Source: Candidatus Falkowbacteria bacterium (GTDB lineage Bacteria > Patescibacteriota > Patescibacteriia > CAIXNZ01). From it: DNA of 64,000 bases. The stretch lies in assembly GCA_963774955.1 (NCBI GenBank), contig CAVZGV010000003.1, positions 128,771-192,770 of the forward strand. The letters are read 5' to 3'. A program made the position numbers and the translations under genes. The notes under the pieces are model-generated. The model was not told the DNA's origin, did not search any database, and saw nothing but the letters and a program-made list of their open reading frames with translations. Of this stretch, positions 21,930 through 23,900 are shown piece by piece. How positions within the stretch are numbered: position 1 is the first letter of the stretch; the number at the start of each line of letters is the position of its first letter.

Positions 21930-23900
21930 ATGTCAAAAATTTTAGGAATTGATTTGGGAACAACTAATTCCTGCATGGCCATTATTGAAGGCGGTGAACC
22001 AAAAGTGTTGGAAAATAAAGAAGGCACCAGAACCACCCCTTCTATTGTGGCGATTTCCAAAACAGGGGAACGAGTTGTCGGCCAGCTGGCCAAACGCCAG
22101 GCTGTAACTAATCCGGAAAATACTATTTTTTCCATTAAACGTTTAATTGGCCGCCGTTGGACAGATGATGAAGTTCAGCGCGATAAAGAAACTTTGCCTT
22201 ATAAAATTGTGCAGGCAGGCGACGGTGTTAAAGTTGAAATGTCAGGTAAAGAATATACACCTCAGGAAATTTCAGCCATGATTTTGCAGAAATTAAAAGC
22301 TGATGCTGAAGAAAAGATTCGGTGAAAAAATTACCGAAGCGATTATTACTGTGCCGGCTTATTTTGATGATTCGCAAAGACAGGCGACCAAAGATGCCGG
22401 TAAAATTGCCGGTTTGGAAGTTAAACGAATTATTAATGAACCGACAGCCGCTGCTTTGGCTTATGGTTTTGATAAGAAAAAAGATCAGCAAATCGCGGTT
22501 TATGATTTGGGCGGCGGTACTTTTGATATTTCCATTTTGGATGTTTCCGCTAATACCGTGGAAGTAAAATCTACCAATGGCGATACTCATTTAGGCGGTG
22601 ATGATTTTGATAAAAAAATTATTGACTGGATAATTGCTGAATTTAAAAAACAAAACGGCTTGGATTTATCCAAAGATCCCATGGCTTTACAACGAATTAA
22701 AGATGTCGGTGAAAAAGCCAAGATTGAACTGTCATCCTCAGTGGAAACTGAAATCAATCAGCCGTTTATTGCTCAGGGTGCTGACGGCAGTCCGATGCAT
22801 TTAGTTATGAAAATAACCCGCGCCAAACTGGAAGAATTAGTCGGTGATTTAGTAGAAAAAACCATGGAACCGGTTAAAAAAGCTTTAGCTGATGCCGGTT
22901 TGAAAGCCCGGTGACATTGAAGAAGTGGTTATGGTCGGCGGTATGACCCGCATGCCTTTGGTTCAGAAAAAAGTGGAAGAATTTTTCGGCAAAAAACCGC
23001 ACTTAGGCGTTAATCCTGATGAAGTGGTGGCTATTGGCGCTGCTGTACAAGCCGGTGTGCTTGCAGGGTGAAGTTAAAGATGTCTTATTGCTGGATGTCA
23101 CTCCTTTATCTTTGGGTATTGAAACTTTAGGCGGTGTTTGCACCAAATTGATTACCAGAAATACCACTATCCCGACTTCCAAGTCTCAGATATTTTCTAC
23201 GGCCGCTGATTCTCAGACTTCAGTGGAAATTAATGTCCTGCAGGGTGAACGTGAAATGGCGGCTGATAATAAATCTTTGGGCAGATTTATGCTTGTCCGG
23301 CATTCCACCCGCACCGCGCGGTGTCCCGCAGGTGGAAGTTTCTTTTGATATTGATGCCAATGGTATTTTAAATGTTAAGGCAGTTGATAAAGCGACAAAT
23401 AAAGAACAGAAAATTACTATTACTGCTTCTTCCGGTTTATCCAAAGAAGAAATTGAAAAAATGCAAAAAGATGCGGAACTGCATGCTGAAGAAGATAAAA
23501 AGAAAAAGGAACTGATTGAAGCCAAAAATTCCGCTGACACTTTGATTTACTCAACTGAAAAGACCCTAGACTGAATTAGGCGACAAGGTTAATGCTGACA
23601 TGAAAAAGGAAGTGCAGGACAAGATTGAGGAATTGAAAGAAAGTCAAAGACGGTGAAGACGCTGAAGCCATTAAAAAAGCCAATGACGCTGTCATGCAAG
23701 CTGCCCAAAAGATCGGCGCGGAAATGTATAAAGCTCAGCAGGAAGCCTCCGCCTCCGCTGAAGCTTCGGCGGACAAGCAGGCTAAGGCAGGTGCGCAACC
23801 AGGTGCTAAAGAACCAGGTGCTGAGGAACCGAAAAAAGATGAAGCTAAACCAGATTCAGACAAAAAGCCGGAGGAGGGGGAATTTACTGAAAAGAAATAA
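21930..23900 (+). pseudogene. dnaK: chaperone DnaK (Hsp70), about 6 frameshifts
   Basis: [64 protein letters not shown], the substrate-binding domain and a C-terminal lid lie in 6-7 consecutive frame segments separated by stops (track ORFs 21930.., 22303.., 23019.., 23233.., 23694..). Confidence 0.8.

Follow-up and report, generated by a model that had tools for sequence, protein, structure and literature searches.

Background

The genes hrcA, grpE, dnaK and dnaJ under CIRCE/HrcA control make up the canonical heat-shock locus of bacteria. Programmed +1 frameshifting of the prfB type takes place at a CUU-UGA-C slippery site with an upstream Shine-Dalgarno-like stimulator. Bacterial pseudogenes are deletion-biased, and the degrading genomes of recent symbionts are rich in pseudogenes.

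Long-read assemblies contain indels that fragment genes (PMC12007338). Errors remain where the polishing reads align unreliably, and the commonest residual error of long reads is an error in homopolymer length (PMC8812927). Nearby allelic variants can lead to misalignment of reads and to spurious indels in collapsed assemblies (PMC8445201).

The sequence studied here is a stretch of 64,000 nucleotides, in the following called the window, from a contig of a Candidatus Falkowbacteria bacterium in which the dnaK gene is broken by six frameshifts. These very probably arose by errors of base calling, consensus or polishing in the metagenome-assembled 565-kb contig as deposited, which belongs to an uncultured, Parcubacteria-like member of the Patescibacteria, and not by mutation of the organism.

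The heat-shock locus

The heat-shock context of dnaK is present in the window, with CIRCE, hrcA, grpE and dnaJ, and the synteny is the same as in two relatives, L001 and L002 (Table 1). L002 is a Parcubacteria MAG from Lac Pavin in which every gene is intact and which is syntenic with the window from 3.4 to 35.4 kb. The exact HrcA protein is present on the Logan contig 6ztuPNij, and the exact DnaJ protein is found both in NCBI/ENA and on a Logan contig. There is nothing unusual in the real gene content of the heat-shock locus. An earlier reading made from the sequence only had called the surroundings of dnaK otherwise intact, which is correct for the chaperone genes only; elsewhere in the window mutS, a four-gene ABC-transporter operon, a flippase, a GT4 glycosyltransferase and a further gene are frameshifted.

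Table 1. Positions in the window of the heat-shock genes, the dnaK segments and breaks, and the other intact and frameshifted genes
Feature	Position	Strand	Remarks
CIRCE operator (TTAGCACTC-N9-GACTGCTAA)	19591-19617	+	upstream of hrcA; 1 mismatch to consensus, 0.03 chance matches expected
hrcA, intact, 231 aa	19816-20511	+	Pfam HrcA; same length as L002 orthologue, no frameshift
grpE, intact, 158 aa	20611-21087	+	aligns to L002 GrpE residues 10-159, no frameshift
dnaK segments	21930-22319, 22321-22908, 22910-23059, 23061-23291, 23293-23568, 23570-23635, 23637-23900	+	
dnaK break 1, shift window	22297-22325	+	
dnaK break 1, extra base	22318-22320	+	within TTC (AAG ATT C GGT); removal gives EEKIGEK
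dnaK break 2, shift window	22904-22914	+	
dnaK break 2, extra base	22902-22909	+	within GAAAGCCC; removal gives GLKPGD or GLKAGD
dnaK break 3, shift window	23007-23071	+	
dnaK break 3, extra base	23059-23063	+	within GCTTG; removal gives GVLQGEV
dnaK break 4, shift window	23152-23348	+	
dnaK break 4, extra base	23291-23295	+	within GCTTG; removal gives F(M/I)LSGIPP
dnaK break 5, shift window	23570-23574	+	
dnaK break 5, extra base	23568-23570	+	within AGA, without homopolymer; removal gives TL(T/A)ELG
dnaK break 6, shift window	23637-23656	+	
dnaK break 6, extra base	23635-23639	+	within GAAAG; removal gives ELKKVKDGED
dnaJ, intact, 370 aa	27029-28141	+	Pfam DnaJ, DnaJ_CXXCXGXG, DnaJ_C
Error patch A	14757-17831	+	HlyD C-terminus, ABC ATPase, MacB#1, MacB#2 (operon 14.7-18.2 kb)
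HlyD C-terminus	+1 at 14757	+	relative to L002
ABC ATPase	+1 at 15025, 15221, 15276	+	relative to L002
MacB#1	+1 at 15991, 16145, 16176, 16636, 16649, 16865; -1 at 16770	+	relative to L002
MacB#2, insertions	+1 at 17085, 17274, 17302, 17594, 17693, 17778, 17815, 17831	+	relative to L002
MacB#2, deletions	-1 at 16981, 17242, 17670	+	relative to L002
Flippase	+1 at 29585	+	relative to L002
GT4 glycosyltransferase	+1 at 30322	+	relative to L002
Gene after GT4 glycosyltransferase	+1 at 32080; possible second at 32165	+	relative to L002
mutS	55897-58323	+	at least five ORFs: 55897-56694, 56654-56836, 56769-57044, 57171-57518, 57496-58323
PBP2, intact	1461-3260		
dnaG, intact	35510-37312		
mgtA-like P-type ATPase, intact, 846 aa	46048-48588		
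mutL, intact	60478-62259		

Frame structure of dnaK

The Hsp70 coding sequence (21930-23900, + strand) is split over seven frame segments according to the ORF list and the stop-codon map; at least six had been counted before. The frames of the segments (coordinate modulo 3) are 0, 1, 2, 0, 1, 2 and 0, which gives six breaks, every one of them +1. A nucleotide alignment with the intact dnaK of L001 (83% identity) has one surplus base per break and no further difference that disturbs the frame, and the breakage by about six frameshifts that was first read from the sequence is thus found again with the ORF list, the stop map and the alignment.

The segment boundaries in Table 1 are the extra bases picked by a protein alignment in which frameshifts are allowed. 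The shift window of a break is bounded by the last stop of the incoming frame on one side and the first stop of the outgoing frame on the other, and it is narrow at four of the six breaks. The extra bases were placed by means of single-base removals for which all residues of the resulting peptide occur among 120 homologues, and their placement is ambiguous over 3-8 nt.

The breaks could stem from miscalled homopolymer lengths, the classical error of 454, Ion Torrent or Nanopore R9 data. Break 1 adjoins GAAAAG, AAA or CCC runs can accommodate breaks 2 and 6, and a few other sites in the window (14757, 15276, 17693, 17815 and 30322) are in A or T runs. However, none of the 22 homopolymers of at least five bases in dnaK coincides with a break, although homopolymers had been suspected from the outset. 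Breaks 3, 4 and 5 are best placed in GCTTG, GCTTG and AGA, with no run longer than two bases, and in total three or four of the six breaks are best placed where no run reaches three bases. The first break had been assigned to an A-run at about 22318. The A-run is a possible placement but fits less well than TTC: removal from TTC results in EEKIGEK, where every residue is known in homologues, while removal from the A-run results in EERFGEK, where one residue is unseen in them. The sites in patch A are also mostly outside runs, and miscalled homopolymer lengths are very unlikely to be the origin of the breaks.

State of the frame-corrected DnaK

The corrected DnaK deviates at none of the 196 invariant columns and at none of the 310 columns with at least 95% conservation among 120 homologues; at the junction residues this agreement is by construction, as their choice was guided by the homologues. 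Among the homologues the median number of deviating columns is 3 of the 310. The corrected protein scores 1000.6 bits with the NCBIfam DnaK equivalog model NF001413 (cut-off 648) and 975.1 bits with TIGR02350 (cut-off 822.55), and it is 89-92% identical to intact DnaK of Patescibacteria. A protein search with the stitched DnaK gave only intact DnaKs, from Patescibacteria, Parcubacteria and Buchananbacteria (best 89% among the matches listed), and in a scan of species-representative genomes all of the 80 retrieved loci had an uninterrupted dnaK (best 92%). A frameshift at these sites was found in none of the 120 listed homologues and in none of the 80 related loci.

Judged by its conserved columns, the corrected DnaK is under no relaxed constraint and is unlike a decaying gene. 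Decay is not supported because there are six indels yet no substitution at constrained sites.

Frameshifts elsewhere in the window

The scan of coding potential and Pfam domains showed that mutS, two MacB-type permeases (MacB#1 and MacB#2) and a GT4 glycosyltransferase are split in addition to dnaK. The indels were counted by aligning the L002 proteins to the window with frameshifts allowed. This gave about 28 single-base insertions versus about 5 credible single-base deletions, an excess of insertions (about 28 of 33 events) with a binomial p of 7e-5. The lesions are patchy and hit at least nine genes, irrespective of function. MacB#2 has about 11 indels and MacB#1 about 7. The Pfam domains MutS_I to MutS_V are distributed over the fragments of mutS, and after correction the MacB and ABC proteins can be aligned over their full length with the L002 orthologues, at high identity. 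No frameshift event was found in the approximately 10 kb that comprise hrcA, grpE, dnaJ and four other genes with an L002 reference.

The genes for dnaG, mgtA, the PBP and mutL had been named as intact, and all four are. The earlier observation that the damage is not uniform is also correct, with indels occurring in patches along the contig and clean genes between them. The damage is not targeted at dnaK. Neither are the errors confined to highly conserved genes, in which they had been suggested to be concentrated, since two permeases, the flippase and the glycosyltransferase are affected and dnaJ, hrcA and grpE are spared.

The frameshifts are present in the deposited sequence, and mutS, which is itself broken, could in principle raise the indel rate when lost. 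They might then belong to a real strain, perhaps a mutator with a broken mutS, that has frameshifted dnaK, mutS and MacB operon and that coexists with, or has replaced, the strain with intact genes seen in the Logan assemblies (see below). Neutral decay should, however, add many substitutions per indel, and despite six indels there are 0 substitutions at the 310 conserved columns of DnaK. The ratio of insertions to deletions is opposite to the deletion bias of pseudogenes, and the lesions in dnaK are 1-nt insertions only, with no relaxed constraint seen in the gene. Loss of mismatch repair acts preferentially on long homopolymers, but in dnaK none of the 22 runs of five bases or more is hit.

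Sequence context of the extra bases

The extra bases could also be real and bypassed, whether through programmed +1 ribosomal frameshifting, through quadruplet decoding of, for example, Leu codons, or through their removal from the RNA. In favour of this, the six dnaK shifts all have the same direction (+1), purifying selection seems to act on the protein, a TGA a few bases from the break closes five of the old-frame segments, and several sites have the form of a Leu codon followed by one base (CTT-G twice, TTG-A twice and CTA-G). The nearby TGA is, however, a by-product of GGT-GA(A/C), encoding Gly-Glu/Asp, when read out of frame, and at breaks 4 and 6 the homology has already changed frame 18-54 nt ahead of the stop, so that the shift lies elsewhere than at the stop. 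The codon CGG is in ordinary use, occurring 94 times. The approximately 28 sites in the window have no motif in common, neither a slippery nor a stall motif, and -1 events also exist. The insertions are absent from the relatives and, for breaks 5-6, MacB and mutS, from the independent assemblies described below. Bypass of real extra bases is on these grounds extremely unlikely.

Particular signals were tried and rejected. A hungry or unassigned CGG codon, found in the old frame at four breaks, was rejected on the uses of CGG in intact ORFs. An RF2-like shift at TGA was rejected on the out-of-frame origin of the TGA and on the early switch of frame, well ahead of the stop, at breaks 4 and 6. 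The rules that every extra base is a G, or that each site is a Leu codon plus one base, were rejected on the ambiguity of the positions and on about 22 sites in other genes that disobey them.

Independent assemblies of the strain

The Logan per-run assemblies of ERR15459710 and ERR12035938 were reached via exact matches to the intact neighbour proteins, and their contigs were compared with the window by the coordinates and lengths of called genes, not by bases. The contigs are from the same strain, with 100% identical neighbouring proteins and identical spacers.

The contig rM_YnaFD (ERR15459710, 1438 bp) contains the exact 199-aa methyltransferase (window 23968-24567) at 444-1043 and the 94-aa DUF3467 gene at 1075-1359, and its spacers of 67 nt and 31 nt match those of the window. 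Upstream of the methyltransferase there is a single partial ORF (2..376) of 124 codons, the end of which is the end of dnaK. In the deposited sequence of the window every frame is interrupted somewhere within 23526-23897, and the last frame remains open over just 87 codons, so that rM_YnaFD lacks the extra bases near 23569 and 23636.

The contigs MxqK5nqB (ERR15459710) and gdkJtbOI (ERR12035938) both contain the exact 206-aa protein of window positions 18274-18894 and the same 70-nt spacer, followed upstream by an intact MacB_PCD+FtsX gene of 418 aa, corresponding to MacB#2 and equal in length to that of L002. Still further upstream MacB#1 is found as a partial gene in one frame, of 387 aa or 213 aa. 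On the contig 0vyWHz5Z (ERR12035938, 12.9 kb) there are 11 consecutive genes of the same length as in the window, and mutS is one ORF of at least 678 aa that starts as in the window, where the first frame comprises 265 codons. The indels of dnaK breaks 5-6, MacB#1, MacB#2 and mutS are thus absent from an independent assembly, and the lesions were not reproduced in these independent data from the same population.

Three variants of the predicted 124-aa DnaK tail were looked up as exact sequences in the protein collection without a match, and no copy from the same species came up in a search with the 115-aa C-terminal part of DnaK, the best match being 77% identical. The Logan contig with the small ORF upstream of dnaK extends towards grpE and not into dnaK, and the one with the 224-aa protein ends 126 codons into HlyD. 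Nine intact window proteins are present in the public protein collection, all of them from one NCBI/ENA contig of 565,549 bp. No exact match to the 203-aa and 131-aa fragments of dnaK was found in that collection, as would be expected had dnaK been annotated as a frameshifted pseudogene. The exact look-up of GrpE and of the 289-aa protein also found nothing.

Genuine decay of an essential chaperone had been put forward as one of two explanations in the sequence-only reading. It is contradicted by the lack of relaxed constraint, by the insertion bias and by the uninterrupted genes in the independent assemblies (3' end of dnaK, both MacB genes and mutS). As regards a real strain with broken genes, the Logan comparison covers breaks 5-6 of dnaK, which leaves some room for such a strain at breaks 1-4, but elsewhere the strain is identical in protein sequence to the contigs with intact genes, and its existence is very unlikely. 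It is exceedingly unlikely that a subpopulation truly carries the extra bases, as phased +1 shifts in dnaK, mutS and a MacB operon, while still needing these proteins, so that it would have to delete or bypass single bases at heterogeneous sites through editing of the RNA or through generalised quadruplet decoding, or that a very recent mutator is in the course of losing dnaK.

Origin of the frameshifts

The indels are in the deposited sequence, and reads from the same strain that were assembled independently give intact sequence at dnaK breaks 5-6, MacB#1, MacB#2 and mutS. Breaks 1-4 of dnaK are presumably of the same kind as breaks 5-6. The earlier proposal of assembly or consensus indel errors thus stands in its substance, but not in the homopolymer origin or the restriction to highly conserved genes that went with it.

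With consensus errors as the origin, the organism itself would have an ordinary CIRCE-hrcA-grpE-dnaK ... dnaJ locus and a functional DnaK. The contig has patches of about 1-3 kb with approximately one single-base indel, very probably spurious, per 200-300 nt (about 0.3-0.6%), and outside the patches tens of kilobases are free from errors. Three such patches hold dnaK, the HlyD/ABC/MacB operon and mutS, respectively. The most likely technical cause is that stretches of a long-read-based consensus were thinly covered or unpolished; the density of indels, the kilobase-sized patches and the clean intervals together fit a consensus of that type. If the deposit were a pure short-read de Bruijn assembly such errors would be hard to explain.

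Another technical cause may be that strain variants were misaligned and collapsed, with both third-position alleles kept in tandem. All six dnaK sites can be read as tandem alleles (ATT/C; AAA/G or TTG/A; GTG/C or CTT/G; ATG/C or CTT/G; GAC/T; AAA/G), and such an origin would explain the insertion bias. It is one possible technical cause only. About half of random insertions can be read in the same way, and the approximately five genuine -1 events in patch A need another source.

Significance

If the frameshifts were real, the loss of the only DnaK in a bacterium with a minimal genome would be remarkable, and the same can be said of widespread +1 recoding. On the evidence given above the dnaK frameshifts are not a real biological feature. 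The practical value of the result is as a flag of data quality, as patches in a public contig make dnaK, mutS and an ABC-transporter operon look like pseudogenes. Metabolic reconstructions, pseudogene counts and claims that CPR bacteria have no DnaK or MutS would be misled if based on the deposited contig. The gene tables of per-run assemblies, looked up via the intact neighbouring proteins, offer a way of adjudicating such cases without the reads.

Comparison with known systems

The locus agrees with the canonical heat-shock locus in that CIRCE is upstream of hrcA, the order hrcA, grpE, dnaK is that of the relatives L001 and L002, dnaJ is found a few genes downstream and the corrected DnaK passes the equivalog models. 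It differs in having a small ORF on the opposite strand between grpE and dnaK, and genes for the methyltransferase, a DUF3467 protein, a GIY-YIG protein and a 398-aa protein between dnaK and dnaJ.

The +1 direction and the TGA close to five of the six dnaK breaks are shared with frameshifting of the prfB type. In contrast to that system the sites are heterogeneous, with neither a CUU-UGA-C site nor a Shine-Dalgarno-like stimulator, they are not conserved in relatives, and the extra bases are absent from the independent assemblies. The many frameshifted genes, including genes for DNA repair and a chaperone, resemble the genomes of recent symbionts, whereas the missing substitution load, the insertion bias, the spatial patches and the intact genes in read-based contigs do not.

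The indels can also be compared with the known gene-fragmenting errors of long-read and hybrid assemblies. Those in the window differ in being mostly insertions and mostly outside homopolymers, homopolymer length being the commonest residual error of long reads (PMC8812927). In agreement with known assembly errors, single-base indels split perfectly conserved genes into adjacent ORFs, survive in patches, lead to pseudogene calls by annotation, and the ORFs are restored in an independent assembly.

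Interrupted and overlapping reading frames

In the window, the efflux operon, with the gene order HlyD, ABC-ATPase, MacB and MacB, is hit by indels over its entire length, with about 17 insertions of a single base and about 4-5 deletions. The genes of this operon are uninterrupted on the Logan contigs (read assemblies made independently per run, same strain) of two runs. The mutS gene is divided in the window into at least five separate ORFs, counted over 55897-57044 and 57171-58323, and is found on a Logan contig as one ORF of at least 678 amino acids.

One pair of ORFs overlaps in a +1 relation. 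Neither of the two has a match in Pfam, and the shorter has an unusually high coding score. A Logan contig has calls matching this two-ORF arrangement (56 and 260 amino acids), and the pair is therefore not an assembly-specific error.

Coordinates of the features described
Feature	Sequence	Position	Strand	Product	Pfam E
High-G+C segment	window	5973-11507
Efflux operon	window	14757-17831
Hairpin	window	19518-19566
Small opposite-strand ORF	window	21256-21576	-	106 aa
Small opposite-strand ORF	L001	5552-5833		93 aa
Segment with GIY-YIG gene	window	24884-25688
GIY-YIG nuclease gene	window	25374-25682		102 aa	8e-15
Flippase, first region	window	28141-28301
Flippase, second region	window	29553-29774
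ORF pair, whole	window	49216-50140
ORF pair, shorter ORF	window	49216-49404
ORF pair, longer ORF	window	49277-50140
mutS	window	55897-58323

The heat-shock locus and the adjacent flippase

A small ORF on the opposite strand between grpE and dnaK is common to the window and L001, a relative with an intact dnaK. It has no match in Pfam; an exact copy of the protein encoded in the window is found on a Logan contig. In the window, 168 nt (21088-21255) separate the stop of grpE from the stop of this ORF, compared with 146 nt on the Logan contig H0BsBx_W, a difference of 22 nt. A long perfect hairpin (CCAAGGTTCGACCTCCAAATTGGAGGTCGAACCTTGG) is located about 25 nt 5' of CIRCE, the operator upstream of hrcA. 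This hairpin may serve as terminator for the gene before it, or it may be a repeat element.

The Polysacc_synt/MurJ-like flippase near dnaJ is 438 amino acids in the window compared with 536 in L002, the syntenic Lac Pavin Parcubacteria MAG. Over approximately the first 45 residues of the protein in L002, the window protein shows no clean match. The C-terminus of the window protein is encoded in a different frame (+1 at 29585). The Logan contig with dnaJ stops at this same spot, at about 28311 near the first of the two flippase regions.

Segments without a counterpart in L002

The high-G+C segment has a G+C content of 46-52%, compared with 37-42% elsewhere, and a heavy use of CGG codons. It encodes an AAA ATPase, a pyruvate-kinase-barrel-like protein and adenylosuccinate synthetase. 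No counterpart of it is found in L002 between the matches to window 3426-5094 and 12994-13528, and the segment may be an acquired island. The GIY-YIG nuclease gene is part of about 590 nt that are absent from L002, where the DUF3467 gene is followed by the next gene without them; this looks like a small insertion of the mobile or homing-endonuclease type.
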